Source: a virus
Virus record (IMG/VR): IMGVR_UViG_3300021472_000137
Length of the DNA: 26,381 nucleotides
Direction: 5' to 3' (one strand)
Positions 1 to 26,381 of this stretch are shown piece by piece. The stretch's first letter is position 1. Each line of letters starts with the position of its first letter. The notes under the pieces are model-generated. The model saw only the letters and a program-made list of their open reading frames with translations. It did no database searches and was not told the DNA's origin. The position numbers and the translations under genes were made by a program.

Positions 1-2
1 TG

Positions 3-191
3 CATCTGAGTGGCAGCGACTGTCGCTCTCTGTTCTCGCTTGAATATCTCGCAGCGATGGCTAAGGGCATCTCCTCGGAAACGCTCACGCTCTTCATAGG
101 CACGGACTACCCGCTGAAAATGGAGTTTGAGATTGCGGAAGGCTTCGGAAAAGTCATTTACTTGCTCGCTCCTCGCATAGAGGCTGAATGA
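3..191 (+). CDS. pcn: PCNA sliding clamp, C-terminal fragment (5' end outside window)
   Basis: Frame from 3 reads HLSGSDCRSLFSLEYLAAMAKGISSETLTLFIGTDYPLKMEFEIAEGFGKVIYLLAPRIEAE*, the typical euryarchaeal PCNA C-terminus (S-x-F/Y-S-L-E-Y-L, G-T-D-Y-P, YLLAPRIE). Confidence 0.93.
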   Translation, partial: HLSGSDCRSLFSLEYLAAMAKGISSETLTLFIGTDYPLKMEFEIAEGFGKVIYLLAPRIEAE

Positions 192-204
192 GGGGGAATG
201 ACTT

Positions 205-384
205 ATGCCGCTGGTCTTGCCAGGAAAATATTTAAAACTCTTGATTTGGGACGACAATTTCAGCATACAACAGAGGAAAGAAGGTAAAGTTGTAGATGAG
301 CTCAAGGAGCTAATTCAGCTTGCTCAACAGGCAGTCGAAAGGTTGGAAAGAGCTGAAGAGCTGGAGGAAAGTGAAAATGTCTGA
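205..384 (+). CDS. Hypothetical 59-aa protein (not in ORF track)
   Basis: MPLVLPGKYLKLLIWDDNFSIQQRKEGKVVDELKELIQLAQQAVERLERAEELEESENV*; follows PCNA with GGGGGA upstream; helical charged C-terminus. Confidence 0.6.
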   Translation: MPLVLPGKYLKLLIWDDNFSIQQRKEGKVVDELKELIQLAQQAVERLERAEELEESENV

Positions 385-431
385 GTTAGACTTGGAGAAA
401 CTGGCTGATGAAGTAGAGTAAGGGGGTGAAA

Positions 432-617
432 ATGGAAGAAGACTTAATTATCAAATTGCTGGGCAGGGCGGGAGCGAGGTTGCAGGCGATATGTAGCGCA
501 AGGTCGCAATACAAAGATGAAAACACCTTCAAGCACGCTCTTGCAGAATGCGTTGATGAAATAAGACAACTGTGGCAGGCATTAGAAGAGGGAAAACGAA
601 AGGGGAAAAATGCCTGA
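432..617 (+). CDS. Hypothetical protein
   Basis: ATG at 432 after GGGGTGA SD; stop overlaps next start; E/K-rich composition like neighbours. Confidence 0.7.
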   Translation: MEEDLIIKLLGRAGARLQAICSARSQYKDENTFKHALAECVDEIRQLWQALEEGKRKGKNA

Positions 618-1050
618 GAAGCCTTTAGACTTGGAAGAATTGGCAGATGAAATAATAAGGGTTGAGTATCCTACTTACGAGCAGGCGATTCCAGGACTAA
701 GAGAGGCAATCATCAGGAAGAAGTGGCGGATAAAGCATATTCTGGAACGATATATCAAGCAAACAGCAGAAGCAGAGGGGGCAAAGAAAAAGAAGGTTCT
801 GGAAGGTCGCCTTGTTTGCATCCCTTACGGAGGGGATGGATGGGTTCTGTTCAGTGATGATTCGGCTAAAGAATACCACGAGCTCCGCAAGAAGCTCCGC
901 AGCGGAGAGCTCACAGAAGAAGAGATGGATGTGTGCGACAGACGGCTGTGGGAAATAGAGCGAGGGGGTAAGTGGATTGATTCGGCTCTCTGCGATTTGG
1001 AGGGGAAGAAAGTGCGAATAACTGTTGAAGTAGTGGAGGATGAGAAATGA
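610..1050 (+). CDS. Hypothetical protein, 146 aa
   Basis: Coupled to neighbours by overlaps; C-terminal LEGKKVRITVEVVE beta motif. Confidence 0.8.
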   Translation: MPEKPLDLEELADEIIRVEYPTYEQAIPGLREAIIRKKWRIKHILERYIKQTAEAEGAKKKKVLEGRLVCIPYGGDGWVLFSDDSAKEYHELRKKLRSGELTEEEMDVCDRRLWEIERGGKWIDSALCDLEGKKVRITVEVVEDEK

Positions 1051-1361
1051 TAGAGAGCGAGGCGCTTAAGGAAATAGCTGAGAGAATAGAAAAAGGCAAA
1101 GAAAGGCGCTCACGCATCGTTCAGGAACTCTTCAAACTCTACGACAGAGTGCAAGAGCTTGAGAGAGAGTTAGAAGATGAAATCGTTGAACTGCTCAAAC
1201 GCTTGGACAGGGACGATTACTACCTCATTCATTTCGTAGGCACAACGCTGGAGGAGGATGGCTTAGAATGGTGGACAAGCAGAGGGAAAGAAATCTATGT
1301 GCGAGTGGACGGCTCTATTGAGGTGCGAGATAGAAAGGGAAAAACCATTCTGAGGGTGTGA
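1047..1361 (+). CDS. Hypothetical coiled-coil protein, paralog A
   Basis: ATGA overlap; shares GKERRxRIVQELFKLY...DGLExWT...DGS with 1363-1665. Confidence 0.85.
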   Translation: MIESEALKEIAERIEKGKERRSRIVQELFKLYDRVQELERELEDEIVELLKRLDRDDYYLIHFVGTTLEEDGLEWWTSRGKEIYVRVDGSIEVRDRKGKTILRV

Positions 1362-1362
1362 G

Positions 1363-1665
1363 ATGACAGAGCTACTTGAGGAAGTAACAGAAAGGGGTAA
1401 AGAAAGGCGAGCTCGCATCGTTCAGGAACTCTTCAAACTCTACGAGAAAGAAGAAGAGCTTGAAGTAAAATTATATAAAGAAGCTGCTGAAATACTCAAA
1501 CACATGGATGAGAACGACTTTATCGCTCACATCTCCGCAGCAGATGATGGCTTAGAGTTTTGGACAAGGAGAAAGAGAGTGATATTCATCGGAAAGGACG
1601 GTTCAGTCGCAGTGCAAGCAAGAAACGGGACTTACATCATAGGCTCAAAGACGAAGTTGCTGTAA
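1363..1665 (+). CDS. Hypothetical coiled-coil protein, paralog B
   Basis: Tandem paralog of 1047-1361; GGGTGTGAG upstream. Confidence 0.85.
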   Translation: MTELLEEVTERGKERRARIVQELFKLYEKEEELEVKLYKEAAEILKHMDENDFIAHISAADDGLEFWTRRKRVIFIGKDGSVAVQARNGTYIIGSKTKLL

Positions 1666-1677
1666 GAGGTGTGAGAA

Positions 1678-1833
1678 ATGTCTGAGCTGCTCTGCTATCT
1701 GTCTGGCTTCTTCACAGGAGTCGGAGTTACTTGCCTTGCGTTTTGCATTTATCTGCATCGCATCCAAAGGCAGCTCGCCGAAGCCCGCAAAAAGCTTCGG
1801 GGGGTTATAGAGAGGTTGGAGAGAAGGGGGTGA
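1678..1833 (+). CDS. Small membrane protein, 51 aa (not in ORF track)
   Basis: MSELLCYLSGFFTGVGVTCLAFCIYLHRIQRQLAEARKKLRGVIERLERRG*: one hydrophobic helix plus basic amphipathic helix; GAGGTGTGA SD. Confidence 0.7.
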   Translation: MSELLCYLSGFFTGVGVTCLAFCIYLHRIQRQLAEARKKLRGVIERLERRG

Positions 1834-1839
1834 TGTGCG

Positions 1840-2040
1840 ATGAAGTGTATAAGACCGTGGATGGAGTGCAGATTTAGAGATGAGAAGGGAATGTGCAAGT
1901 GGAGTTGTCCAAGGGATTTTCCAGGGACAGACTGCGAAATCGCAAGAGAAGCATGGGGCTGTCCTGCTGTATGCTACTATGAGGCAAAAGAGATGGGTTG
2001 CACAGATGAAGATATGTTTGGAGGGGATGAGAGTGCTTGA
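1840..2040 (+). CDS. Cys-rich small protein, possible metal-binding
   Basis: 8 Cys in 66 aa; GGGGTGA SD upstream. Confidence 0.7.
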   Translation: MKCIRPWMECRFRDEKGMCKWSCPRDFPGTDCEIAREAWGCPAVCYYEAKEMGCTDEDMFGGDESA

Positions 2041-2167
2041 GGACGACTACCTACTGGCTCTTTACAAAATAGAAGAATTGCGAAAACTGCGGAAGAAAAT
2101 CGCAAGAGAGTTCGCAAAGAGAAGAGTAGGAGACATCTGTGCATTCTCACCGAGGAGAGGGGCATAA
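2027..2167 (+). CDS. Hypothetical 46-aa basic protein (3' part of track ORF 1880-2167)
   Basis: ATG 2027 after GGAGGGG; MRVLEDDYLLALYKIEELRKLRKK...; TAATG coupling to next gene. Confidence 0.6.
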   Translation: MRVLEDDYLLALYKIEELRKLRKKIAREFAKRRVGDICAFSPRRGA

Positions 2168-2319
2168 TGAAGACAATATTCATCTTCGCCGAGCAAACTA
2201 CAACAGACGGAAAGAGATTTCTGCTCGGTTATGAGTTGGGCGAGTCAAGCACAAGCACAGGAGATGTTGTGGTTTTAGATGAGCGGGAAGATGGCATTGT
2301 GATGCCTTTGAGGAGGTGA
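2167..2319 (+). CDS. Hypothetical 50-aa protein (not in ORF track)
   Basis: MKTIFIFAEQTTTDGKRFLLGYELGESSTSTGDVVVLDEREDGIVMPLRR*; TAATG overlap; ends in GGAGGTGA SD of next gene. Confidence 0.6.
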   Translation: MKTIFIFAEQTTTDGKRFLLGYELGESSTSTGDVVVLDEREDGIVMPLRR

Positions 2320-2326
2320 TGTTGTA

Positions 2327-2536
2327 GTGCAAGTAGGTGCAACAGCATACGCTGAAGAGAAGCATGTGAGTCTTTCAAAAGAGATAGACTTGGTCAGCTG
2401 CCCCGCACTTCAGTGCGGAGCTTGCTCGACCTCCCTAACAGGGAAGGGAGCATTAGGCCGGCTGACAAGCGGCCCATTGAGTTGTAAAAGATTTGAGTAT
2501 TTAAATGTTGCTTCTAAAGGGGAGGAGAAATGGTAA
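2327..2536 (+). CDS. Hypothetical Cys-containing protein
   Basis: GTG start after GGAGGTGA; CPALQCGAC; overlaps next start. Confidence 0.5.
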   Translation: MQVGATAYAEEKHVSLSKEIDLVSCPALQCGACSTSLTGKGALGRLTSGPLSCKRFEYLNVASKGEEKW

Positions 2537-2730
2537 ATGCCTGCGAGTGTCGTTGGACAAGAGAGCAGGCGAAGGTTCTGCTCGCATTTCTCCTTGCGGA
2601 GAAAGCGAGACATGAGAGAGACATCCACGAAATTGAGCACTGCATTGAGCGAATACGCATCCACTACAATCTGCGAGAGGAGGAAATAGAGGATGCAAAA
2701 TACTTCTCCCGTCTTTTCGCACAGTATTAG
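2530..2730 (+). CDS. Hypothetical protein, 66 aa
   Basis: GGGGAGGAG SD; last gene before T-rich tract and long intergenic region. Confidence 0.75.
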   Translation: MVNACECRWTREQAKVLLAFLLAEKARHERDIHEIEHCIERIRIHYNLREEEIEDAKYFSRLFAQY

Positions 2731-2878
2731 ACTTCTTCCGCCTGCGTTTTCGCCTGCGTTGCGTTTGCGATTTCGCCTTTTGCTTTTTTATGAATGACAG
2801 AGTGCCCGCCTGCACGGCGGTAGAGTGCCTATATATTTCTATTGGGATAAGCTTTAAATAACCTTCATTTCCTTTGGG

Positions 2879-3002
2879 CTATCTCTATCTCTATCTCTAT
2901 CTCTATCTCTATTGTATGTAATAAAAAGATACATATATATTTACATCGGAAAAACATAAGAGGGTAGTGAAAGAGAAGGGTATTATCTCTATCTCTATCT
3001 CT
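2879..3002. repeat. (ATCTCT)n hexamer arrays: about 5.7 copies at 2879-2912 and 3 copies at 2985-3002
   Basis: Read directly in an AT-rich non-coding interval. Confidence 0.95.
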
Positions 3003-3108
3003 TTCATATATAAAGCTTACTCTTTGAGCAAAATCATAATAAAAAGAAGGAGAAAGGAAAAAAAAGGAAAGGGGTTATGTGCTACCTCTCTCCATCCTCT
3101 TACGACCT

Positions 3109-3375
3109 TCAGTCTTCGTATCTGAAGATTTCCCGCTGGTCGCTTTTGTAGGCGGTTACTACGCCGAGACCGTAATTTGCGATGACGAATCCTTTGAGGG
3201 GCGTCCCTTCGAGGATATGGATTTCGAATAAGCCGGTCCCGTCATCGTAGCTGATGGTAGTCCATCTGCATTCTTTCTTGTCATGTCCATAGTAGGCGAA
3301 GATTACCTCTTTCTCTGCTTCTTCTATTCGCTTCCTCATCCTCTCACGAAACGCCTTCGCTGCATTTTCGCTCAT
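3109..3375 (-). CDS. Hypothetical protein, 88 aa
   Basis: GGAGGTGA SD 6 nt upstream of ATG; divergent from 3439. Confidence 0.8.
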   Translation of the reverse strand: MSENAAKAFRERMRKRIEEAEKEVIFAYYGHDKKECRWTTISYDDGTGLFEIHILEGTPLKGFVIANYGLGVVTAYKSDQREIFRYED

Positions 3376-3404
3376 TTCACATCACCTCCCGTTCTATTTT
3401 AAGA

Positions 3405-3421
3405 CATATATATTTAAATAA
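3405..3421. promoter_or_regulatory. Divergent TATA region (ATATATATTTAAATA)
   Basis: Palindromic TATTTAAATA at 3411-3420 between divergent genes 3375(-) and 3439(+). Confidence 0.65.
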
Positions 3422-3438
3422 TGAATACATACGGATGA

Positions 3439-4218
3439 ATGGAAATGAGGGGTCGTCGTGTGTTCTTGGAGAATCCGAAGCATGTGGATGTGGTGCTGGA
3501 GGAGCGTCAGTTGAGAGAGATAGCGATGGTCGCAAAGAATAGAAGCGAGTTCATAAGGGATGCGATTGATTTGGCGTTGGGGCATAAGGACTTTACGGAG
3601 GGGCAGAAGCTTCGTGAGGAGAACGAGAAACTTCGTTCGGAGGTTGAGAAGTTGAGAAGTGAGAATGAGGAATTGAGGCGTCAGCTTGAAGAGGCGAAGA
3701 AGTTAATAGAGGTCTTGAAAGGGGAGCGGAAGGCGCAAGGATTAGATGCAAAGCGTTATCAGACATCATTTGGGTGGCTCACTGCGGGAGAGATAAAGGC
3801 GAAGTTCATGGAGAAGAAGCCAGTGAAACCGCTTGAATGGCTCTCTTCGGTCTTATATAATGATGCGGTTGCGATTCAGGAAGTAGCGCCGCTTTTAGGC
3901 TTACAGGATTCTTCATCTTCTTCGTCTGCTGTGCTTCGTGAGACTGCGAATGTCGTTGCGAAGGATGCGGTTCGTGAGACTACGGAGAATGCGGAGGAGC
4001 GAGAGCGAATAGAGCGGATGTTGAGAGCGAGAGAGGTTCGTCGGCGTCGTCGTCGCTATGAAGAGTGGGATTTCAAGCGACTTGCGGAAGACTTGGGATG
4101 CTCGGAAGAAGAAGCACGGAGGATGGTGGCGGAGAAGATTTCGGAAGCTGAGGGCGAAGCTGAAGATGAAGCTCGTGAGATGATAAAGAGGGCGAGGAGC
4201 ATCATAGAAGGCTACTGA
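3439..4218 (+). CDS. RHH-like DNA-binding domain plus long coiled coil
   Basis: N-terminal beta-helix-helix ending NRSEFIRDAIDLAL (RHH signature), then heptads LREENEKLRSEVEKLRSENEELRRQLEE. Confidence 0.7.
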   Translation: MEMRGRRVFLENPKHVDVVLEERQLREIAMVAKNRSEFIRDAIDLALGHKDFTEGQKLREENEKLRSEVEKLRSENEELRRQLEEAKKLIEVLKGERKAQGLDAKRYQTSFGWLTAGEIKAKFMEKKPVKPLEWLSSVLYNDAVAIQEVAPLLGLQDSSSSSSAVLRETANVVAKDAVRETTENAEERERIERMLRAREVRRRRRRYEEWDFKRLAEDLGCSEEEARRMVAEKISEAEGEAEDEAREMIKRARSIIEGY

Positions 4219-4677: not shown

Positions 4678-5652
4678 TCAAACGCCGTAGAAGACTCTTG
4701 TGAGATTGAAGAGTCTGCGAATTTCTTCTTCGCTTAGAGCTCTTGAATAGATGCAGACTTCGTCGATGGTGCCGTTGAAGTAAGAAGAAGGGCGATTTTC
4801 TATCCCTCTTGAACCTATAAAAAGTCTTGCATCATTTGTTTTTATTGCTCCAGAAGCCGTTCCTTCACCAACTTCAACACCGTTTATGTAAAGATAGCCC
4901 TTTCCTGTAGAAGAATCATAAGTTCCAACTACATGATACCATCTAAAAGATTCAAGCCCAGTTTTTTGAATAAACAGTCCTATGTTTGGAATTTCAAATC
5001 TAATCTCATCAGCCTTCCACGATAATAGTGCAAACCCGCTCTCGGTAGAATCTCTTTTCTCTAAAATACCTTTTTGTAAAGATGCAAGGTCGCCATTCAC
5101 CCACACCATAACCGTGATAGCATCGGTAATATCCAAACTCGCCGAATCAGGTACCTCCACATAATCATCCACTCCGTCAAAGCTCAAAGCGGATTTACCG
5201 CTTGGGAGAGTTTGCCAGACTGCGCCGTAGATTGTGCCGTGATTGCCGAACGGAGACCTATCGTATACTTCTGTGTCTGTGTCGTTTATTCCCGCTCTTA
5301 AATTTCTCGTCATGGGAAGCCAAAGCACGCAGTTATCGTATAAGCCTTCTTTGAGCATGAAACACAGCACACGCAGATATGATGCTTCGTCACCGTTCAG
5401 CTCCGCATAATTCGTCAGAAGCTCTATCTCCTCGTCTGTGAGCGTTATACATGCGTTTGCAGCCTTGTTTATGCTCTCATGCGCAGCCATATATTCAACC
5501 ACCTCCGCAGCCTTTCTCTCACTCAGCCTCCTTAAACCTACTTCTCCTCTATCATATAAATGAGATATGTGTGCATCCTCGACAGAATCCCAGTTCCATC
5601 TTATTTCGCCAGTTCTCGCATCTATGAATCGCTTTTCGCTCACCTCCATCAT
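4678..5652 (-). CDS. LamG/concanavalin-A-like (Laminin_G_3) domain protein, probable receptor-binding spike
   Basis: DRSPFGNHGTIYG, ALSFDGVDDYVEVPDSASLDITDAITVMVWVN, WYHVVGTYD, LYINGVEVG, FNGTIDEVCIYSRALSEEEI are hallmark LamG-like motifs. Confidence 0.92.
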   Translation of the reverse strand: MMEVSEKRFIDARTGEIRWNWDSVEDAHISHLYDRGEVGLRRLSERKAAEVVEYMAAHESINKAANACITLTDEEIELLTNYAELNGDEASYLRVLCFMLKEGLYDNCVLWLPMTRNLRAGINDTDTEVYDRSPFGNHGTIYGAVWQTLPSGKSALSFDGVDDYVEVPDSASLDITDAITVMVWVNGDLASLQKGILEKRDSTESGFALLSWKADEIRFEIPNIGLFIQKTGLESFRWYHVVGTYDSSTGKGYLYINGVEVGEGTASGAIKTNDARLFIGSRGIENRPSSYFNGTIDEVCIYSRALSEEEIRRLFNLTRVFYGV

Positions 5653-17243: not shown

Positions 17244-17802
17244 GCATCTGTGTGAGTATTTTGGCTATCCGAAGGAGTATGCGGAGTGGTCAGTCGCACC
17301 AGACATGGATTTGCCGTTCTTGCATCGCTTCTGGAGGCATCGCTTCTCCACCTTTGAGAGCATTTACAACGAATTCGCATACATGCATCCTTCCGTGCCG
17401 AAGGGTAGCAAAATCGCAATCGGCGTGATGCTCTGCTCTCACTTCCTTTTAGACATCTACAACGCACCGCTCTTCTGCTGGGGCATCTTCCTGCCTGCGT
17501 CGCACATACCGCCTGAACTCCTAAAGGAATACTTGGAGGGCGATTATCCGCTTTCGGAACTTCACAAGGAAGAGGTAAAATGCTTCGTTCAGCACTTGAA
17601 GCCTGAGAGTGCCTCTGCGTTCATGAACGGCGTTATTGAACTGCTTGCGACGCACACGCCTTTCATCACCAAGCGAAGAGTGCGCAAGGCGAAGAAGTGC
17701 GTTGAGAACTTCTGCTCCGTCTCGCTTACGGAAACTTACGACCTGCGTGAGTTTGATTCCGCCTTCTTCAAAACGCTTAACGAATTCTTCGCATCTCACT
17801 GA
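17212..17802 (+). CDS. Metal-dependent hydrolase, YdjM/Zn-phospholipase-C-like
   Basis: True start probably ATG 17212 (MDATSH); H...APDMD...HRFWRH...SHFLLD pattern. Confidence 0.65.
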   Translation: MDATSHRLLGKHLCEYFGYPKEYAEWSVAPDMDLPFLHRFWRHRFSTFESIYNEFAYMHPSVPKGSKIAIGVMLCSHFLLDIYNAPLFCWGIFLPASHIPPELLKEYLEGDYPLSELHKEEVKCFVQHLKPESASAFMNGVIELLATHTPFITKRRVRKAKKCVENFCSVSLTETYDLREFDSAFFKTLNEFFASH

Positions 17803-18683
17803 AACTGCGAGAGATTTGTCTGCCTTATCTTATGATAATTCATCCATATGCAATCAATCCTTCGCTGACCCTTCTTGAATGTCGCCCCTTCGCCTTGAAT
17901 TCCCGTGTGTCGTGTTCTGCCGACAGCATGACAGGCAACATTCCAGCATATCTTGTGCCATCCACAACGCTCCAATTCCTCATACAACTGCGAAGGATAA
18001 CCCGAAAGCATGATTTTCACGCCTCGCTCTTTCTTTATGACTTCTATGAGCTCTTCGTGCTGCTTCTCCGTGAATTCAAACCTGTAAGAGCCGTTTCGCC
18101 GTGTCTCTGGCATATAAGGCGGGTCTAAATAAACAAATGCCTTAAACCCTTTCTCCTTCCACACGGGAACATAACGCTCATAGACGGAAAGCCAATCATC
18201 GCACTCCACCTGAACACGACGCAAACGCTCATGAATTTCTGGCAACCTGTCTATCGCTGAAAGATAATTGCGAACTGCTTTCAAAGTCTCTGTGATGTTA
18301 TAACCCCATGAATTTCCCAAACGACCCCTAAAACTCATTCTCGCAAGCACAAAGAACAAATGCGCCCTTTCAACATTATCTTTCCACTCTTTATTTCTGA
18401 ACTTTCGTAATGCCTCGTTGTATTCGCCCCTTGAGTATAGGGTCAAATATGCGAGGCGGTAGAAGCGGGCAAACTTCTCTTCATCACGAAGCACCGCATA
18501 GAGATTCATCAAATCGCCGTCTATGTCGTTGATTACCTCTATTTTCACGGGCTCTTTCGCAAAGAATAGCGAGCCAGCACCGAAAAACGGCTCTAAATAA
18601 GCATCATGTTCAGGCACGAACTTCAACAACCTTCGCACTGAATTTCCCTTACCCCCAAACCACCAAATAGGCGACCTAAGCAT
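17796..18683 (-). CDS. dam: DNA adenine methyltransferase, Dam/D12 class (orphan)
   Basis: WFGGKG, YLEPFFGAGS (motif I), EVINDID, FVYLDPPY (motif IV), FTEKQHEEL, MLSGY. Confidence 0.95.
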   Translation of the reverse strand: MLRSPIWWFGGKGNSVRRLLKFVPEHDAYLEPFFGAGSLFFAKEPVKIEVINDIDGDLMNLYAVLRDEEKFARFYRLAYLTLYSRGEYNEALRKFRNKEWKDNVERAHLFFVLARMSFRGRLGNSWGYNITETLKAVRNYLSAIDRLPEIHERLRRVQVECDDWLSVYERYVPVWKEKGFKAFVYLDPPYMPETRRNGSYRFEFTEKQHEELIEVIKKERGVKIMLSGYPSQLYEELERCGWHKICWNVACHAVGRTRHTGIQGEGATFKKGQRRIDCIWMNYHKIRQTNLSQFQ

Positions 18684-18815: not shown

Positions 18816-19784
18816 CTACGAGCTCGCAAGTTTCCGCCACCACGCAGGCGGAATCCACCTCCAGTCTTCATCAATCCACAGAAACCTCTTTAGGTTCAGG
18901 GGCGGATACCGCTTCAACTTCCTTCTTATCGGAGAGCCATGCTCACGAGCCCATCGCAACGCCTTCTCCGTGTCCCAACCTTTCTGCGAGCATATTCGCA
19001 AGATTTCCTCGCAGCTTCTCCTATCAGCATTCAGGTATATGCCGAGAATGCGGGAGTTCTGCCAATCCGATGCCACATCCCCCTTCCAACTCTGCTTGAA
19101 CAGATGCCCTACTTCCGCTCTCTTATCAACGATAACGGGATGCTGTAATCGCCATAAACGGAAGCCATGCTCTTCTTCCCATCCTAAGCGACGATGCTGC
19201 CACAGAAATCCGCCGAACTCGTAAAAATGCCTGAACACTTGCGGGGTCATCACAAAGGCGCATCCACATACTGTCGGAACCGCAAAAATCCTCTCATCTG
19301 AGGAGGGAGCATACCAAACCCACTCAAACGGGTGCTTCGTGAATCTGAATGTCACGCCGTAGCCTGTCGCCCCTTTAACCTCGCAGGAGGGGAAATCCAC
19401 CACTCGCACAGGCATCCCTAAAAGCGCATTCGGATACTTTCGCAGCGTTTCCACTGCACTTTCAATCGCCTCTGGTGTAAAACACACATGGCAGTCAAAG
19501 AAGAACAACGCCTCTGAACGGGGCGACGCTATAATCGCACCTGTGTTACGAGCTGCACCGCAAGACCACACCCTTCCGACGATTTTAACGGGAAAGTCCG
19601 CCTTCTTACGCACATAACTCCGCTCCTCTGCGGGTGAAGCGGTGATGAAGCATAATTCTATCTCCTCCCCCTCCGCTGCGACATCGTTCAACTGCTTTAT
19701 CATGCGGTCTATAAACTCTTCCTCGTGGTATTCCTGAATGATGAATGTTATTATTTCCCTCTCACCTCCTACTTCTTCACCCAC
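18816..19784 (-). CDS. GT-A fold glycosyltransferase with DxH motif (GT2/GT27-like)
   Basis: CGAARNTGA, FFFDCH, VPTVCGCAFVM, GWEEEHGFRLW, VGHLFK; no TM or signal peptide. Confidence 0.88.
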   Translation of the reverse strand: MGEEVGGEREIITFIIQEYHEEEFIDRMIKQLNDVAAEGEEIELCFITASPAEERSYVRKKADFPVKIVGRVWSCGAARNTGAIIASPRSEALFFFDCHVCFTPEAIESAVETLRKYPNALLGMPVRVVDFPSCEVKGATGYGVTFRFTKHPFEWVWYAPSSDERIFAVPTVCGCAFVMTPQVFRHFYEFGGFLWQHRRLGWEEEHGFRLWRLQHPVIVDKRAEVGHLFKQSWKGDVASDWQNSRILGIYLNADRRSCEEILRICSQKGWDTEKALRWAREHGSPIRRKLKRYPPLNLKRFLWIDEDWRWIPPAWWRKLASS

Positions 19785-20656
19785 TTGAAATGAGCATAAT
19801 AGTCTTCCACACTCTTCTTCCTTCTCCTCATAACTTCCTTCCGCAAGGGTAAATACTTCTTCATCGCAAGGGCAAAGATTTTTTCCTTATTCGGACACAT
19901 GAGCACTTCATACATCCTGCGCACCGTGTTCCAGTCAAAGTTTATCAAACCCGTGAGAAGCCTCGTCAAGCAGTATTCATCCGCCTTCGTTTCATCCCAT
20001 CCCTCGTAGTAGGGCTTGTATATGTGCATCACAGCAGCAGACGGAACTACATAAGAAGGATGTCCCAATGTCCACATTCGCAAACAGAACTCATAATCCT
20101 CACACGGTATTCCCGGCAGATAGCCAAATATGCTATCCCGCCATGTCTGCGCACTCATAAACTGGAAACAGCCACAAAGCGACGGGACTTCCCGTGGCGT
20201 CTCGCCAAAGGAAGGGTAAAAAACCGTGTAATGCTTCTCCATCTTTGGGTCTTCTCGTGGGTCTACAAGAACGGTTGCCAAATTCATCTCCTTCTTATCT
20301 GCCGCATACTTTGTCGGTCCTACTATTGCCCCCTCCTTCGTGTGTAAAAAATCTATGAGCTTTTCATCCCATCTCTCTGCTCTCTCATCAAATAAAACAT
20401 TCGCATCGCAGAACGCCACATATTGCGCATGTAACTTGTTTATCGCATAATCCGCCCCCAAATTCCGTGCAATCCCTCTCGGCTCTTGGTTCTTCAAGTA
20501 GACTATGCGTGGGCTCTCTCTCAACACGCTTCGTGGGGCTATCCCACTGATAATAATATGATGCGGTAAAGTAGTATAACGCTCTATGCCCCGTATGGTT
20601 CTTATTGTATTCTCCTCTGGCTCTTTTTCGTGAACGGGAATCACTATGCCTATCAT
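19769..20656 (-). CDS. GT-A fold glycosyltransferase (GT2-like)
   Basis: IGIVIPVHE, GIARNLGA, AFCDAN, VPSLCGCFQFM, CEDYEFCLRMW, VMHIYK; no TM or signal peptide. Confidence 0.9.
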   Translation of the reverse strand: MIGIVIPVHEKEPEENTIRTIRGIERYTTLPHHIIISGIAPRSVLRESPRIVYLKNQEPRGIARNLGADYAINKLHAQYVAFCDANVLFDERAERWDEKLIDFLHTKEGAIVGPTKYAADKKEMNLATVLVDPREDPKMEKHYTVFYPSFGETPREVPSLCGCFQFMSAQTWRDSIFGYLPGIPCEDYEFCLRMWTLGHPSYVVPSAAVMHIYKPYYEGWDETKADEYCLTRLLTGLINFDWNTVRRMYEVLMCPNKEKIFALAMKKYLPLRKEVMRRRKKSVEDYYAHFKWVKK

Positions 20657-20658
20657 AC

Positions 20659-21039
20659 TCAGGGAAGCATCTCTTCCTTTCGCTTTATCACGGCGGTGAG
20701 CGAGCAGAACACATCTGGCAACGCATTCACAAACGCCTCTTCTATCTCAAGGCACTGAATATGCTTGTCCGCTAACTCCTCACTGCCGACAAACTCAACG
20801 ATTTCGTCGTAAGTAACGCATTCGCCCTTCTCGCCCTTGTCGTTCAAAAAGTCTATGAGCGCTAAATGCTTATTCACGAAGTCTTCAAGCGAAACTTCCG
20901 CTGCTTGAAACGCCCTTATTCCTCCGACTCTTGACGCAGCCCTTGACATAACTCGTGTCCTCCGACCCTGAACGCTTTGACCCTGAATCCTCATCGCTCC
21001 TATCCGCTTCGCATCCAACTTTCTCGCTCTCGCATTCAT
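20659..21039 (-). CDS. Basic N-tail plus helical domain protein, paralog A
   Basis: Arg-rich N-terminal ~42 aa; SLEDFVNKH..C..DEIVE..H..C similar to 21052-21363. Confidence 0.75.
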   Translation of the reverse strand: MNARARKLDAKRIGAMRIQGQSVQGRRTRVMSRAASRVGGIRAFQAAEVSLEDFVNKHLALIDFLNDKGEKGECVTYDEIVEFVGSEELADKHIQCLEIEEAFVNALPDVFCSLTAVIKRKEEMLP

Positions 21040-21051
21040 TCTCGCATCACC

Positions 21052-21363
21052 TCAATAGGTTGTCTTCTCACGCATCTTCTTCAGCAGGTCAAAGAGCATC
21101 TTTATGCCTTCCGTCGTGCATATTGTATCTTCTGTTGCCTTCGCACACGCCTTCGCTGCCAAGAACATCTCCTCGTGCAAGCGCCATCTGTCATCGGGAA
21201 TGCCCAGCTTCTCCCTCACATCTGAAATATGAGCGCAAGAGCCTATTTCCTCCTTAATCTTGCGGTGTTCTTCTATGAACGCATCTATGCTCATTCCCGC
21301 AACGCCCGCTCCTGGACCGCCGATTTCAACCGTTCCCAACTCCCTTCTCTCCAAAACGACCAT
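21052..21363 (-). CDS. Helical domain protein, paralog B
   Basis: SIDAFIEEH..C..SDVRE..H..C; GGTGATGTGA SD. Confidence 0.75.
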   Translation of the reverse strand: MVVLERRELGTVEIGGPGAGVAGMSIDAFIEEHRKIKEEIGSCAHISDVREKLGIPDDRWRLHEEMFLAAKACAKATEDTICTTEGIKMLFDLLKKMREKTTY

Positions 21364-21382
21364 TTCACATCACCTTGCACAA

Positions 21383-22423
21383 TCACACCGCAGACACTAC
21401 CGCAGACCACCCGTAAAGCTCTGCTTCCAGTATGTATGTTGCTCTCGTGTCCGCAAGCGCCGTAGAAGGCATTAGCACATCTACATACAACGAAATGCCG
21501 TCGCCAGGGTCTACAGGCTCGCTCACATCAGAGCTGAACGAGAACTCCTTGCCTTCCACATCCCCCGTCCCCTTGAATGTAAGCTTCACTTGATATGTCG
21601 CTCTTATCCCATCCGTCGGGTTCTCAACCCTCAACCTGAATGTATATGCCGAACCCACAGTGATAATGCGGGGAATTCTTGACTCTCCGACATTTATATA
21701 GCCTTTCACCTCGCCCTTACGCACCTCAATCTCAATCGGAGGCGCTGGCGGTGCTGGCGTCAGCTTCGTCAGCGTGATATACTTATCTGTATCTTTATAT
21801 ACTGCAACAGTAGTCTCGTAGTCCGCATACCCTCTCTTTGTGAGTTTGATTTTATAAATCCCCTCACGAATCTTGAATGTTTCAGGCGTCAGCCTATATG
21901 TGTCCTCGCCCTCAATGAAAATCATCGCACCAGGCGGGTCGGACACTATCGTAAGGCAATGATAACCACTCCCTGGCGGTGGAGGGCACTCCTCTTTTGA
22001 AATCGGCTCCCAAGTAGGACCAGGTGTCGGCGGAGTAGGCGTAGGTGTCGGAGTAGTCGGAACGGGTGTCGGCGTCGGTGTTGGCGAAGGCGTCGCAACT
22101 TCCGTATAACAGAACTTGTTCGGAGCATCAGAATGATTCGCTATCCAAACTATGTCCTCATCTGTTAAAGCAACACCCCCGTTCTTTTCCCTTAATTTCG
22201 CCGCATCTATTTTGCCCGTTTTGTTGTATTTATCCTCGTAAGAGTAGCCTCCATCTAATATTGTCACCACTGCATCAACAGTGGAACCCCAATACTCCTC
22301 ACCTTTGGGAGTATATACTAAAACCGTTGTCGCATCTGTGTCTGTGAAACAGTATTTATTCGCCTCTGGTGATTCGCCCAAATACTTTGCTATGTATCTC
22401 TTGCATTCTTCTGTCAGCGCCAT
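21383..22423 (-). CDS. Pro-Thr linker + PEGA + Ig-like domain protein
   Basis: ATG 22423 coupled by TAATG; TPSPTPTPTPVPTTPTPTPTPPTP; PEGA LTIVSDPPGAMIFIEG...TP...EGIYKIKLTKRGYADYETTV; C-terminal FRLRVENPT..YQVKLTF. Confidence 0.88.
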   Translation of the reverse strand: MALTEECKRYIAKYLGESPEANKYCFTDTDATTVLVYTPKGEEYWGSTVDAVVTILDGGYSYEDKYNKTGKIDAAKLREKNGGVALTDEDIVWIANHSDAPNKFCYTEVATPSPTPTPTPVPTTPTPTPTPPTPGPTWEPISKEECPPPPGSGYHCLTIVSDPPGAMIFIEGEDTYRLTPETFKIREGIYKIKLTKRGYADYETTVAVYKDTDKYITLTKLTPAPPAPPIEIEVRKGEVKGYINVGESRIPRIITVGSAYTFRLRVENPTDGIRATYQVKLTFKGTGDVEGKEFSFSSDVSEPVDPGDGISLYVDVLMPSTALADTRATYILEAELYGWSAVVSAV

Positions 22424-23061
22424 TATGACCACCCGCACCCTATCTTCGCATCTCCCATACTATACAGCTCCAAGTAATAATAACGCACTCCTAAATATTG
22501 CTCCCATGAAATCGGCGAAGGAATGCTCGCAGGTCTTATGTCTTCTGGAATCGCTTTCCTCCTTGACTCCGCCAAATCACTCAGACCTAAATACTCATAG
22601 CGCAACGCAAGCACATGATTCCATGTCAGATTTCCCTTTCCAGCACTCTCCACATAAGCACACACCTCAGCATTCGGCACTGGTGTCGGCGTTACGGTTG
22701 GCGTCGGCGTTACCGTTGGTGTGGGTGTCGGTGTCGGCGTAGGTGTAGGCGTCGCAACCGCAGCACAGTATGGTGGCGTCTTCTCCTGCTCTTCACAAAC
22801 CGTCTTGACATCTTCTATGTCTAAATCATAACCATTCGCTTTTACAAAATCCTCGTAACTCTTCCCATTCACGATTTCTTTCGTCGTGTAGGGATAGCCT
22901 AATAACGATGCAACAACGAGCATCGCAGCGACATCCGTCGTTGAACCCGTGTGAGAATTGCCCTCTAAATCCTTGTAGGAGACGCCTGACGATGCAAAAC
23001 AGTTGTTCACGCCTGCATTGATTGCAAGCCAGTCCTTCCCACCATTCGTGAGTGTCATCAC
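22423..23061 (-). CDS. Pro-Thr linker protein with C-terminal Cys-bracketed module
   Basis: ATPTPTPTPTPTPTVTPTPTVTPTPVP, then VCAYV...YYY...GDAKIGCGW. Confidence 0.88.
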   Translation of the reverse strand: MMTLTNGGKDWLAINAGVNNCFASSGVSYKDLEGNSHTGSTTDVAAMLVVASLLGYPYTTKEIVNGKSYEDFVKANGYDLDIEDVKTVCEEQEKTPPYCAAVATPTPTPTPTPTPTVTPTPTVTPTPVPNAEVCAYVESAGKGNLTWNHVLALRYEYLGLSDLAESRRKAIPEDIRPASIPSPISWEQYLGVRYYYLELYSMGDAKIGCGWS

Positions 23062-23300
23062 GAATCACCCAACGCACATGGCGTCTTCTTATCCCCTTCT
23101 CTCACATTTCCCTTATAGTATTCCACCGCTCCATATATATAATCTTTCGTGGAAACATCAAACCCTAAATCTTTTACCCCACAGAACGCTAAAATCAAAT
23201 CCTTCAACTTCTCCGAGCTCGGATTCGAGGGCAAATCCTGAACGAATGCGCAAAATCCCGTATGCACCTTCCCTACTGTCCGCTCATCCTGCTTCGCCAT
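23058..23300 (-). CDS. Stand-alone Cys-bracketed dockerin-like module protein, 80 aa
   Basis: FCAFV..KLKDLILAFCGVKDLGFDVSTKDYIYGAVEYYKG..GDKKTPC. Confidence 0.8.
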   Translation of the reverse strand: MAKQDERTVGKVHTGFCAFVQDLPSNPSSEKLKDLILAFCGVKDLGFDVSTKDYIYGAVEYYKGNVREGDKKTPCALGDS

Positions 23301-23306
23301 CGTCTC

Positions 23307-24206
23307 TCATGCGTAGAGCGTCGCATCTATCGTGTAAGTTCCGCTCTGCAGGTTCAGCGGCAAGTCCCAACGCACATATATCTTGTCCTTCTTCCCAACA
23401 TCTATGCTCTTCTTCGCACTCGTTAGCGTCGTTGAATAGCCCGGTCCTGAAATCTTGACATCTACCCAGTAATTCGCCTTTATCTTGCCTGTGTTCTCCA
23501 CGCACACCCCTATGTTTATTGAAGTCCCCGCCTTCGCCGACGACGGAATGTCATGCTCATCGCATATTTTTCCCTTCGGCGCTGGCGTGCAACAGTTCGC
23601 ACATATCGTGTTCGCATCCTTCCCATCCGCTTTTTCAACAAAATCCCACTCCGCAACTGTGATGTTGCCTTTTGCGTGGTCTATCCATGCATTATCAGAG
23701 GAAACCACGCACTGGTCATCCGCATAGTGCTTCAACAACTCGCAGCCGCTTGAATAGTGCGGTGTCGCCTCCCAGCATGTAACCTTCTTCTCCACCTTGA
23801 AAGTGTCGCTTCTTGAATAGGAGCGCAGATTCACCCAGTTCCCCGTGCGAGGGTCTTTCGCATCCAAATACACCGCAGTTATCGTATATGTTTTGTCCGC
23901 CGTAAGCCCTAAATCAGGAGGCTGTGCCTTGAAATATATCCCCTTAGTCGTGCCATGCGTCATCTTTCCTGTGCCATAAGTATCCACCGCACCGCTCAAC
24001 GACGGCGAAATGCTTATGCGCACCCTATACTCCAAATCCAGCGAAGAATCCGCATGAACAACGCAGTAATAGAATTCATAGTATGCAGATGCCGCCTCTG
24101 GAACATTGCCGACGACTTTGAAATCGCTGAGCTTCGCATCCACCCCCGTCACTGAAATCTCTTCTATTGCTCCTATCCGTATGTCCCTTTTATGCATCTC
24201 TACCAC
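23307..24206 (-). CDS. Ig-like/CARDB-type multidomain protein
   Basis: C-terminal AKAGTSINIGVCVENTGKIKANYWVDVKI...KIYVRWDLP...GTYTIDATL; N-terminal beta-sandwich; Cys-rich helical middle. Confidence 0.82.
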   Translation of the reverse strand: MVEMHKRDIRIGAIEEISVTGVDAKLSDFKVVGNVPEAASAYYEFYYCVVHADSSLDLEYRVRISISPSLSGAVDTYGTGKMTHGTTKGIYFKAQPPDLGLTADKTYTITAVYLDAKDPRTGNWVNLRSYSRSDTFKVEKKVTCWEATPHYSSGCELLKHYADDQCVVSSDNAWIDHAKGNITVAEWDFVEKADGKDANTICANCCTPAPKGKICDEHDIPSSAKAGTSINIGVCVENTGKIKANYWVDVKISGPGYSTTLTSAKKSIDVGKKDKIYVRWDLPLNLQSGTYTIDATLYA

Positions 24207-24215
24207 CTCACACGC

Positions 24216-26159
24216 TCACCAGCCACAATCATATTCGCCCCCTTTGTATATTTTTACTACGCCCTCTATGTCTTTGCGAAGCACCACAAATCCTACATCT
24301 CTGAGATTATTGAATGCGAGAATTAATTCTGCAATATCCATTGATGTGACTTTCGCAGGAAGCCACTCGCACAACGGCAGCGGTTCCTTCCCTTTCACAA
24401 TCATCTTCTTTGAAAGCCTTATCCATTCATGAGATGCATCGCCATCCATTAGTGTGAAGCGAACAAAATCATACCCCTCTACTGAGACCTCAATCTCTTT
24501 TTCGGTAGGTCCCAATATTCCACTCTCCTCATAGAGAGTGCTCCATTCCTTCATATCCTCGCTTCCTTCTACCTTTATACCCCACCATGCGTTCCGCCTC
24601 ACTTTGAATTTCAACGATGAGCCACGAACACGCATCACAAGGCGGGGATACTCCTCTCCTTTTACTCTAGTTGAATACCACCACTCATCTTCCTCGGTGA
24701 GAACTTCATCAGGGTCTTCCACTTGCACAAAGAACGGCGAATCCTCCGCCAGAACAACAAGCTCACAAACTGGAAAAGTGTCAATCTCGCCGAAAATGAA
24801 CTGCTCAAGCAGCTCATAATCTCCCCAATCTATTATGCCATCCGCATTCACATCCGCCCGCCTTTTCTGCTCTTCCGTAAGCGTAACGAGGCCTTGGATA
24901 TATTCCCCGAGTAGTCTCGCATCCTTCGGGGACACATAGCCATCATCATCTAAGTCCCCGTAATCCTTACACGGCGGTCTCGGAGGCTCCTTTACACGCA
25001 GTTCCTTCGTTACAGAGCAACTCTCGTTCTGCAAATAGATGAAATATGTGCCTGTTTCTTTGGCTTCAAAACTTTCACTGCCACTACCGCTCACAGTCTC
25101 CTTCAGAACATACTCGTATGATGGCGAAATAACCTTCAAAGTCGTGTCCGCAGGCGCATTCTCATACTCCACTTCAACATATATGTATTGCACCGTCTCC
25201 GTGACCTCCTCGCCCCCAACCTTAACACTCAACGAACACGGCGGAGGCGTCGGGGTCGGCGTAGGTGTGGGCGTTGGAGTTGGAGTAGGGGTTGGCGTAG
25301 GTGTCGGCTTCGCAGGAACTGTTCTCTCTATTTCCTCCACCACTTCTTCGCTCTCTGTCGCCTTTTCAACCTCCACTAACTTGAAAACAATCGTGCCTTC
25401 AGATGGAGGGCTCGGAATGAGAAGCGTCGTGCTTAGCGTAGGCAAATATATCGTGCCTTCTGTCAGTTTCTCGCCATCAGAGAACACACGAATCTTATAG
25501 TAGTAACAATATTCACTATCGCACTTCTCAACATTCGGCACAATTGAGACAGCCGCATACAAATAACCATCCTCCCAATACAACTCAACAGAGCGGAAGT
25601 GCGATGAAAACAAAGCGAACATGTGATTCAGGAACCACGCCTTGACAAACGCAACATACCCTGAATCCTTTCGCTCATATTCGTATGTGTAAGGCAGCAA
25701 GCCCACTTCGCTGTAAAAGTCACGAATTCGCTGGAAAGCATCATCAAAAGTATCGCCATAAATGCCCCAGTATGGAGGCTTACTCACACTTCTGACATCA
25801 TAACCTAATAATTCCGCCAACTCTTTTATCCTGTCAAGAAACAAATCCTCACGAGAGAGATGCTGACCCTGCCACTTGATATAACATCTTCCGTAGCCCA
25901 CACAACCATCCGTGCAATGCTTGTGATGCACATATTCAAGCGTGAAACCTAAACTCTTAATCTCGTCTTGCACAGATTTCTTCAGTTCCACGCATTCTCT
26001 CGACACACAAATCACGGAAGAATTCGGAAAAGGCGGTGTTACCTCCACATCTAAAAGCTGTCCTATGTTCTCCCAAACTTCAAATGAGCCGTATTCATCA
26101 GGCTCGGTATTACCATACGCCTTCTTGTATAGTTCCTTGACCGCCTCCTTCTTGTCCAT
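24216..26159 (-). CDS. 647-aa multidomain protein: Pro-Thr linker, Ig-like domains, dockerin type I, C-terminal Cys-bracketed module
   Basis: (PT)~12; YGDLDDDGYVSPKDARLLGEYIQG..LTEEQKRRADVNADGIIDWGDYELLEQFIFG = duplicated EF-loop/helix dockerin (~24770-24965). Confidence 0.9.
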   Translation of the reverse strand: MDKKEAVKELYKKAYGNTEPDEYGSFEVWENIGQLLDVEVTPPFPNSSVICVSRECVELKKSVQDEIKSLGFTLEYVHHKHCTDGCVGYGRCYIKWQGQHLSREDLFLDRIKELAELLGYDVRSVSKPPYWGIYGDTFDDAFQRIRDFYSEVGLLPYTYEYERKDSGYVAFVKAWFLNHMFALFSSHFRSVELYWEDGYLYAAVSIVPNVEKCDSEYCYYYKIRVFSDGEKLTEGTIYLPTLSTTLLIPSPPSEGTIVFKLVEVEKATESEEVVEEIERTVPAKPTPTPTPTPTPTPTPTPTPTPPPCSLSVKVGGEEVTETVQYIYVEVEYENAPADTTLKVISPSYEYVLKETVSGSGSESFEAKETGTYFIYLQNESCSVTKELRVKEPPRPPCKDYGDLDDDGYVSPKDARLLGEYIQGLVTLTEEQKRRADVNADGIIDWGDYELLEQFIFGEIDTFPVCELVVLAEDSPFFVQVEDPDEVLTEEDEWWYSTRVKGEEYPRLVMRVRGSSLKFKVRRNAWWGIKVEGSEDMKEWSTLYEESGILGPTEKEIEVSVEGYDFVRFTLMDGDASHEWIRLSKKMIVKGKEPLPLCEWLPAKVTSMDIAELILAFNNLRDVGFVVLRKDIEGVVKIYKGGEYDCGW

Positions 26160-26191
26160 TTCTCTCCCATCACTTCTTCATCACTTCTTCA

Positions 26192-26381
26192 TCACGAGCG
26201 ACGCATACGCTCTAACAAACGCCACAACCTCAAGAAGCCCGCAAACTTGCAACCTGTCAAATCATCACCCGTGTCAATATCGCCTCTCTTATACGCTGCC
26301 ATCCCGTAAATCGCATCACGATTCACAGTGAAGTAGTAATCAATAATGCCGTTGAACGCTAAAATCATCTGCTGAATATCC
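26192..26381 (-). CDS. C-terminal fragment of another protein carrying the Cys-bracketed module (5' end outside window; not in ORF track)
   Basis: Frame from 26380 reads DIQQMILAFNGIIDYYFTVNRDAIYGMAAYKRGDIDTGDDLTGCKFAGFLRLWRLLERMRRS*. Confidence 0.85.
   Translation of the reverse strand, partial: DIQQMILAFNGIIDYYFTVNRDAIYGMAAYKRGDIDTGDDLTGCKFAGFLRLWRLLERMRRS

Follow-up and report, generated by a model that had tools for sequence, protein, structure and literature searches.

What is glycosylated by two glycosyltransferases (GTs) whose genes close a viral operon, when the same operon encodes proteins with long runs of proline and threonine? The question is raised by a 26,381-nucleotide virus record, IMGVR_UViG_3300021472_000137, the whole of which is called the window here. 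Its operon region, positions 18816-26381, encodes a 322-amino-acid (aa) enzyme, GT1, and a 295-aa enzyme, GT2, together with three proteins that carry Pro-Thr tracts. The original prediction, made from the DNA, was a virus-encoded mucin-type O-glycosylation system, in which enzymes resembling polypeptide N-acetylgalactosamine (GalNAc)-transferases would give the virion a mucin-like glycan coat. We found that GT1 has the fold and the conserved catalytic residues of the GalNAc-transferase (GalNAc-T) catalytic domain, and that its homologues co-occur with Pro-Thr tract genes. We give even odds, a probability of roughly 0.5, to the reading that, before the virion is assembled, GT1 would O-glycosylate Thr residues of the Pro-Thr linkers in surface proteins that the virus itself encodes, with accessory GTs varying the glycan.

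Fold and catalytic residues of GT1

To place GT1 among known enzymes, we compared its sequence and its predicted structure with those of characterized proteins. In Pfam, only PF00535 (Glycos_transf_2) was detected (E 3.4e-7; 30.8 bits against a gathering cut-off of 23.3). In the PDB, GalNAc-T12 was the sole match to the single sequence, and an 8-member family profile placed 13 GalNAc-T sequences at the top. With a 20-member profile, reaching down to 25% identity, the top 14 matches were all GalNAc-Ts (E 3.7e-18, profile positions 3-259). Dol-P-Man synthase, the first match outside the GalNAc-T family GT27, followed at E 1.4e-6 and aligned in its N-terminal nucleotide-binding half only. The AF2 model of GT1 (pLDDT 88.4, pTM 0.90) pointed in the same direction. 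The top 49 listed ranks in Foldseek were all GalNAc-Ts, with E 6e-15 to GalNAc-T2. An exhaustive VIA search matched mouse GalNAc-T1 at Z 25.2 over 286 residues, with a root-mean-square deviation of 3.1 Å, and the model covered GalNAc-T1 residues 113-421 only, which is the catalytic domain. Toxoplasma GalNAc-T3 followed at Z 23.9, and the next structure, the chondroitin polymerase K4CP, was the best outside GT27 at Z 18.2. These values demonstrate that the predicted likeness to GalNAc-Ts goes beyond shared motifs. They also speak against the possibility, raised with the prediction, that the enzyme would cluster with lipid- or polysaccharide-acting GT2-family enzymes, as far as solved structures are concerned.

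The motifs claimed for both enzymes were all present in the translations. In GT1 they are FDCH (residues 96-99), PTVCGCAF (170-177), EEEHGFRLW (203-211) and VGHLFK (225-230). D97, H99 and H227, which align with the GT27 Mn2+ ligands in all printed alignments, are conserved in 61 of 61 unique family sequences, as are E204 and R209. The corresponding ligands of mouse GalNAc-T1 are D209, H211 and H344 (PMC4202792). The counterpart of the Gal/GalNAc-T motif WGGENxExSxRxW is LGWEEEHGFRLW, where E204 and R209 are invariant, W211 is common, and the WGG part is absent. F229, two residues after H227, corresponds to F361 of GalNAc-T2, and a conserved aromatic-x-aromatic motif of the GT1 family aligns with F280/W282 of the same enzyme. 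In GalNAc-T2 these three residues form the pocket for the acceptor proline, and mutants in them retain almost no activity (PMC4432651; bioRxiv 10.1101/2020.06.25.171371). In the GT1 model a single internal loop, residues 231-240, is poorly predicted; it lies directly after GHLFK, at the position of the flexible catalytic loop of GT27.

Comparison with the GT27 structures of mouse GalNAc-T1 (8v9q/1xhb), human GalNAc-T2 (2ffu/4d0t) and Toxoplasma GalNAc-T3 (6s22/8uhv) extends over the whole GT-A catalytic domain: the metal site made of DxH and a downstream His, the E...R...W core, the GH-x-F-(K/R) motif followed by a flexible loop, and the C-terminal helices are common to both. There are also differences. 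GT27 enzymes have a type II membrane anchor and a ricin-type lectin domain and work in the Golgi, whereas GT1, with its cytoplasmic setting, has neither: no PF00652 match was found in its 322 aa, and it is not a type II membrane protein, since it contains no hydrophobic segment or signal peptide. The identity between them is 14-18%.

Two further features set GT1 apart. Five cysteines near the active site (residues 98, 101, 134, 173 and 175, in D-C-H-V-C, FPSC and CGCAF) are invariant or nearly so in the 61 members and are peculiar to the GT1 side of the comparison. In GT27, the cysteines near DxH form disulfides. In a cytoplasmic enzyme, the near-invariant cysteines of GT1 suggest a structural metal site. 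The other feature is a basic, Trp-rich C-terminal tail (residues ~290-322, window 18816-18915; …RFLWIDEDWRWIPPAWWRKLASS), which is present only in the window's GT1 clade and is predicted with low confidence. It could be a membrane- or partner-binding segment.

Phylogenetic analysis placed GT1 in a clade of its own (support 98/97). The GT2 clade branches just outside a group made of GT1 and the small P0027/P0028 clade. The single true GALNT in the tree (P0107, with a ricin domain) branches far from both, among other DxH GTs, a rough placement of GT27 that relies on one sequence with a long branch. An exhaustive profile search of 1.84 billion representatives returned 17 clusters at E<=1e-30, which constitute the family, and 897 clusters at E<=1e-3. 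Most inspected members of this tail have DxH, [GAS]H-x-F-[KR] and a WGxEDxExSLRxW-like consensus, and 75 of 96 sampled ones match Glyco_transf_7C (PF02709). In a protein-atlas look-up the nearest clusters were phage proteins of the GT2 type, and the nearest viral structure models were uncharacterised phage enzymes. GT1 and GT2 therefore belong to a large uncharacterised prokaryote/virus DxH group with GT27 catalytic architecture. Because this architecture is shared across so large a group, and because the clade is separate, they are GT27-like and not GT27. The call for a structural and phylogenetic comparison with GT27 is thus answered in two ways: the fold is nearest GT27, but the enzyme stands in a separate clade and has no lectin domain.

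GT2 is a paralogue of GT1, with 27% identity (BLASTP E 9e-12) and the motifs PSLCGCF, EDYEFCLRMW and VMHIYK. GalNAc-T10 was its sole PDB match (E 0.034), and PF00535 reached 19.5 bits, which is under the cut-off. GT1 has D-C-H, whereas GT2 has D-A-N, the histidine being replaced by Asn. D-A-N is common to GT2 and its 47%-identical homologue P0009, and the next relatives have D-A-H. Among related loci (numbered L001, L013 and so on), L017 and L022 cleanly lack both the GT2 gene and the gene for the downstream DNA methyltransferase. In L014, whose GT1 is 97% identical, the GT2 slot is occupied on the opposite strand by two genes, another one of the GT2 family and one of GT4 type (GT-B), and an unrelated 173-aa open reading frame (ORF) takes the place of the methyltransferase gene. 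Tandem GT pairs also occur in L046/L047, L049/L050 and L055. A conserved GT1 beside a swappable second GT would fit, as indirect evidence, an initiating enzyme with variable extension.

Linkage of GT1 homologues to Pro-Thr tract genes

In the window, GT1 and GT2 are the last genes of a minus-strand operon. Since its junctions range from a 16-nt overlap to a 19-nt gap, the genes form one tight operon, in the order cut gene, 647-aa, 299-aa, 80-aa, 212-aa, 351-aa, 103-/126-aa, GT2 and GT1. The window holds the distal part, and the operon runs on upstream past the window end, where the first ORF is truncated by the edge. In the close relatives L014, L017, L021 and L022, the gene at this position encodes a 907-1792-aa PKD-domain protein with Pro-Thr tracts.

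The 351-, 212- and 647-aa proteins hold one (Pro-Thr)n tract each, of 24-28 residues, and the positions predicted for them agree with ours within a few bases. The tracts look like interdomain linkers. Their DNA consists of imperfect repeats with mixed codons, and their length differs among close strains, from 14 to 40 aa in orthologues of the 647-aa protein. Within the window, tracts occur in 3 of the 7 genes upstream of GT1 and in 0 of 38 other ORFs. The context of every Thr in (PT)n is P(-1)-T(0)-P(+1)-X-P(+3). The GT27 sequon is T/S-P-X-P, and Pro at -1 is preferred by T2 (bioRxiv 10.1101/2020.06.25.171371). Because T-P-X-P with Pro at -1 recurs at every Thr, (PT)n is an iterated form of the preferred GalNAc-T acceptor. 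Hydropathy analysis revealed no signal peptide or membrane segment in GT1, GT2 or any operon protein, the tract proteins included; the maximum KD19 value, 1.67, falls within a core beta-strand of GT1. The prediction of soluble enzymes and of tract proteins without signal peptides therefore holds. The statement that the GTs end the operon needs qualification: the operon is tight, but a gene for a D12-class methyltransferase, a strain-variable insert, follows on the same strand.

We then examined whether the linkage extends beyond this virus. We counted as a tract any 8 residues of which 7 or more were Pro or Thr, each present 3 or more times. ORFs were called alike in all loci, and one locus was taken per 70%-identity GT cluster, giving 8 lineages. 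The GT1 gene is kept in all 8. Among same-strand genes up to 8 kb upstream of the GT, 14 of 39 contain tracts, compared with 3 of 125 other genes (Fisher p 9e-8). Tract genes lie directly upstream of GT1 in 5 of the 8 lineages, for which the chance at the background rate is ~3e-4. In the provirus L062, tracts are present in 5 of 8 upstream same-strand genes, among them the two closest to GT1, and in none of the 27 other genes, and several of its small proteins are mainly tract plus small domains. The gene that ends at the GT start encodes a tract protein in L048, L052 and L057, and likewise in L051 and L058, with weaker tracts of 9 residues. In L013, a head-tailed virus, a protein with ten tracts is encoded 1.4 kb from the GT, downstream and on the other strand. 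Tract-linked loci are found on both main branches of the tree, with the tract-free lineages nested among them. L188, a 14.7-kb relative recognized by its capsid gene, has no GT and also no Pro-Thr tracts. The outcome is contrary to the independent distribution of GT and Pro-Thr genes that had been named as grounds for refuting the prediction, as the two co-occur in 5 of 8 lineages and are directly adjacent.

Another virus group may hold an independent case of the pairing, in L132 (an 87-kb IMG/VR contig; 1-3531). There an unrelated DxH glycosyltransferase (I-D-C-H, >470 aa) is encoded 1 kb downstream of a structural-looking protein that opens with a Pro-Thr tract.

The neighbours of GT1 homologues encode large surface-type proteins with PEGA, PKD, thermonuclease, beta-helix, Ig-like and dockerin domains. 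Giant proteins that combine staphylococcal-nuclease, PKD and PEGA domains, sometimes with dockerin or Ig-like domains, are encoded at L062:6007-10014, L057:2924-7651, L048:1-2376 and L060:10937-17851. A nuclease domain is unusual on a surface- or adhesin-type viral protein.

Candidate acceptors of GT1 and competing explanations

In our proposal, GT1 is a protein O-glycosyltransferase that works in the cytoplasm and depends on a metal, probably Mn2+, bound at DxH...H; it has the catalytic-domain build of eukaryotic polypeptide GalNAc-transferases minus the membrane anchor and the lectin domain. In the infected cell, GT1 would use a nucleotide sugar, probably a UDP-hexose or UDP-N-acetylhexosamine, as donor and attach the sugar, presumably by retaining chemistry, to Thr of the (Pro-Thr)n interdomain linkers. 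The acceptors would be the upstream operon proteins of 647, 212 and 351 aa and the giant PKD protein past the window. Lacking signal peptides, the tract proteins would acquire the sugar in the cytoplasm and only then be assembled onto the particle, as spike or fibre components. The benefit is likely to be stiffening of exposed linkers and protection from proteases, or altered surface recognition. The second GT slot, which holds GT2 here, a GT2-family and GT4-type pair in another strain, and nothing in others, would extend or vary the glycan. The predicted mucin-like coat appears overstated, as we see single 24-28-residue linker-like tracts in a handful of proteins; glycosylated interdomain linkers are the better reading.

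Several observations weigh against glycosylation of the linkers by GT1. The enzyme is GT27-like without membership in GT27, and its nearest prokaryote and virus relatives are all uncharacterised; the acceptor is deduced from neighbourhood and homology. The placement of the aromatic pair of the proline pocket is ambiguous, HMMER choosing F153-E-W155 and MAFFT F146-R-F148, and the pocket aromatics are kept through much of the wider DxH group and may be structural. The missing histidine of GT2 weakens a role in extension. Of the idea that one enzyme primes and the other extends, the variable second GT beside a conserved GT1 stands, but GT2 itself is absent or replaced in strains. The sampled neighbourhood was free of Pro-Thr and Ser/Thr-rich tracts in 2 of the 8 lineages, L049/L050 and the L060/L001 group; the L060/L001 lineage has a methyltransferase dependent on S-adenosylmethionine (SAM), the GT and a 1,943-2,305-aa PKD/Ig/dockerin protein, with at most one 9-residue TPTPAPTPP. 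Conversely, among the 120 viral loci listed for a (TP)5 DNA pattern, 0 had a GT1-family gene and ~3, one of them L132, had a gene of the wider DxH superfamily. From these loci and the tract-free lineages it follows that Pro-Thr tracts are widespread without such an enzyme, and that the enzyme is possible without tracts. The co-occurrence could also arise if the GT simply ended a structural or adhesin module, since linkers of this kind are usual in the multidomain proteins of such modules.

Part of this evidence would suit an enzyme that glycosylates the co-encoded large surface proteins outside the linkers, for instance on Ser/Thr of PEGA, PKD or Ig-like domains, with the linkers as plain spacers. 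Most lineages, including the Pro-Thr-free L060/L001 group with its single short repeat at most, share a giant PEGA/PKD/SNase/dockerin/Ig-like neighbour. Such an enzyme would, however, leave aside the exact match of (PT)n to the GT27 sequon, the tracts adjoining the GT in 5 of 8 lineages, and the small L062 proteins built mainly of tract and small domains, and we consider it improbable. Marginally more credible, and still unlikely, is a non-protein acceptor. It could be a host envelope glycan or lipid-linked precursor, whose modification would serve receptor masking or superinfection exclusion, or else a polysaccharide or a small molecule. Polysaccharides and lipid-linked sugars are the products of most GT2-type GT-A enzymes, the wider DxH group has yet to be characterised, GT2 weakly matches a mycofactocin glycosyltransferase model, and the Trp-rich tail in the window's GT1 clade could bind membranes. 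On the other hand, GT1 has no membrane segment, and lipid- or polysaccharide-acting GT-A structures score at least 7 Z units under GT27 and align mainly over the nucleotide-binding half. GT1 also lies within or beside genes for large surface-type proteins in the lineages examined, no sugar-nucleotide or export gene was detected among the neighbours scanned against Pfam, and the family is sporadic in host genomes.

The adenine methyltransferase gene of the D12 class immediately downstream of GT1 in the window suggested glycosylation of viral DNA bases as an anti-restriction measure. This seems very unlikely, as the methyltransferase gene is an insert specific to the strain: L017 and L022 lack it, and L014 has another ORF in its place. 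Elsewhere, GT1 homologues are not adjacent to DNA-modification genes, and no solved DNA glycosyltransferase was among the 50 best structural matches. Glycosylation of the Pro-Thr linkers remains the reading that we favour.

At L001:6626-7450 and L060:9134-9979, a gene for a SAM-dependent methyltransferase runs into the start of the GT1 homologue. It hints at a methylated sugar or other modification chemistry in this Pro-Thr-free lineage.

Virus-encoded glycosylation of virion proteins is known in chloroviruses and mycobacteriophages (PMC12363180). In the mycobacteriophages Che8, Corndog and Myrna, according to the summary of Freeman et al. 2023 in PMC12363180, virus GTs modify the phages' own structural proteins in the host cytoplasm; the GT genes are clustered and their content varies between phages, as at the GT1 locus, but the hosts are bacterial and the acceptors are capsid and tail-tube subunits. 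Homology with these enzymes was rejected: Che8 gp108-110 gave E>=0.05 against the GT1 family profile, and showed a weak generic GT-A similarity to the DxH superfamily profile. A197 of Sulfolobus turreted icosahedral virus (STIV) is, like GT1, an archaeal-virus GT-A enzyme with a presumed role in glycosylating viral proteins. Unlike GT1, it is a minimal GT-A domain (Z 13.2, far below GT27) without a known acceptor motif or linkage to acceptor genes. O-glycosylated (Pro-Thr)n linkers occur in secreted bacterial cellulases, such as the 'PT box' enzymes of Cellulomonas fimi, where the glycans protect from proteolysis. Those proteins are secreted and are glycosylated by membrane-associated mannosyltransferases of the host, not by an adjoining soluble GT27-like enzyme.

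Mucin-type O-glycosylation by GT27 is treated as a eukaryotic feature. Putative glycosyltransferases are known in archaeal viruses (PMC10384203), and the pathway of archaeal protein O-glycosylation is still described as elusive (PMC8241124, PMC10384203). In the literature searched, no account was found of a GT27-like enzyme tied to sequon-bearing Pro-Thr substrates in archaeal viruses. More tentatively than the linker reading, and at somewhat less than even odds, the GT1 family may be a true polypeptide O-glycosyltransferase lineage of viruses and proviruses whose hosts are the methane-oxidising archaea ANME-1 and Methanoperedens, with (Pro-Thr)n as its iterated sequon. It would then be the first enzyme identified for protein O-glycosylation within archaeal cells, and a prokaryotic-virus counterpart of the catalytic core on which the eukaryotic mucin-type GT27 enzymes were built. 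A soluble 322-aa enzyme of GT27 architecture and small putative natural substrates with perfect sequon repeats make this a compact and testable system, and the pair recurs across ANME-1 and Methanoperedens viruses with at least two capsid types. [quoted passage not shown] The result would have a bearing on the origin of the GT27 catalytic core, and could supply a small, soluble, probably thermostable peptide O-glycosyltransferase.

Distribution of the family and other features of the window

A metagenome scan with a 12-sequence alignment found GT1 homologues in hydrothermal and other sediment metagenomes. One homologue is on an 82-kb contig of a Methanophagales (ANME-1) metagenome-assembled genome (MAG). 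L062 is a 63-kb contig of a Candidatus Methanoperedens MAG, where an integrase gene adjoins the GT, and represents a Methanoperedens provirus. In the IMG/VR contig L013 a phage portal gene lies immediately downstream of the GT and identifies the contig as a head-tailed virus. Since only 2 of 68 Methanophagales genomes carry the family, it travels on mobile elements. In the second of these genomes, the homologue L187 (G041:C160:4340-5191) has an in-frame TAA and may be a decaying provirus copy.

The 350-aa protein in Table 1 is predicted, at moderate confidence, to contain two jelly rolls. Its model gave full-length VIA matches to the PBCV-1 capsid protein (Z 8.6), PM2 P2 (8.3), PRD1 P3 (7.6) and the STIV major capsid protein (6.7), and also matched a faustovirus capsid protein, all within a middling range of Z 6.7-8.6. 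Its homologues are 44-94% identical in vent metagenomes, and one is found in the distant GT-bearing locus L057. Because the protein matches double-jelly-roll capsids, the window most likely belongs to a tailless icosahedral virus of ANME-type archaea, a reading that depends on this model. The GT family crosses at least two capsid types.

Table 1. Coordinates of the operon genes, Pro-Thr tracts and two further genes in the window
Feature	Position	Strand	Evidence
GT1, soluble GT-A, GT27-like catalytic domain only, 322 aa	18816..19784	-	Pfam, profile, AF2, Foldseek, VIA
GT2, 295 aa, GT1 paralogue, strain-variable accessory glycosyltransferase	19769..20656	-	BLASTP, Pfam, PDB match
126-aa operon protein	20659..21039	-	No Pfam or PHROG match; DNA aligns in L014, L017, L022
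103-aa operon protein	21052..21363	-	No Pfam or PHROG match
351-aa protein: N-terminal domain, Pro-Thr linker, PEGA, C-terminal beta domain	21383..22438	-	PEGA PF08308 E 1.6e-9
Pro-Thr tract of 351-aa protein, ~residues 116-141, candidate acceptor	22016..22093	-	Translation
212-aa protein: two small Cys-bracketed domains with Pro-Thr linker between	22423..23061	-	Translation, hydropathy
Pro-Thr tract of 212-aa protein, residues 103-130, candidate acceptor	22672..22755	-	Translation
80-aa operon protein	23058..23300	-	ORF list; DNA aligns in relative L014
299-aa beta-rich protein, weak C-terminal CARDB / Wzt_C-like matches, no Pro-Thr tract	23307..24206	-	Pfam E 0.006-0.018
647-aa protein: Pro-Thr tract and type I dockerin domain	24216..26159	-	Dockerin_1 PF00404 E 7.3e-10
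Pro-Thr tract of 647-aa protein, residues 284-307, candidate acceptor	25239..25310	-	Translation
3' end of upstream operon gene, cut at window edge	26192..26381	-	Open-ended ORF
D12-class (Dam-like) DNA methyltransferase gene, downstream of GT1 on same strand	17796..18683	-	Pfam, PHROG
Candidate double-jelly-roll major capsid protein, 350 aa	9020..10072	-	AF2 pLDDT 68

PHROGs contained no family for GT1, GT2 or most operon proteins, and NCBIfam gave nothing useful. Neither a DNA nor a protein match was found in a phage record collection. No tRNA genes were detected in the window or in four related loci.

Two genes outside the operon region were also noted. On the minus strand of the window, positions 4678-5652 encode a 324-aa protein whose Laminin_G_3 / concanavalin-like lectin domain is matched at E 4e-29. 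The protein also matches PHROG families annotated as 'virion structural protein' and is a candidate receptor-binding protein. The GT-bearing element L001 encodes a TnpB/Cas12f-like protein (OrfB_IS605 / Cas12f1-like_TNB) at L001:619-1977.

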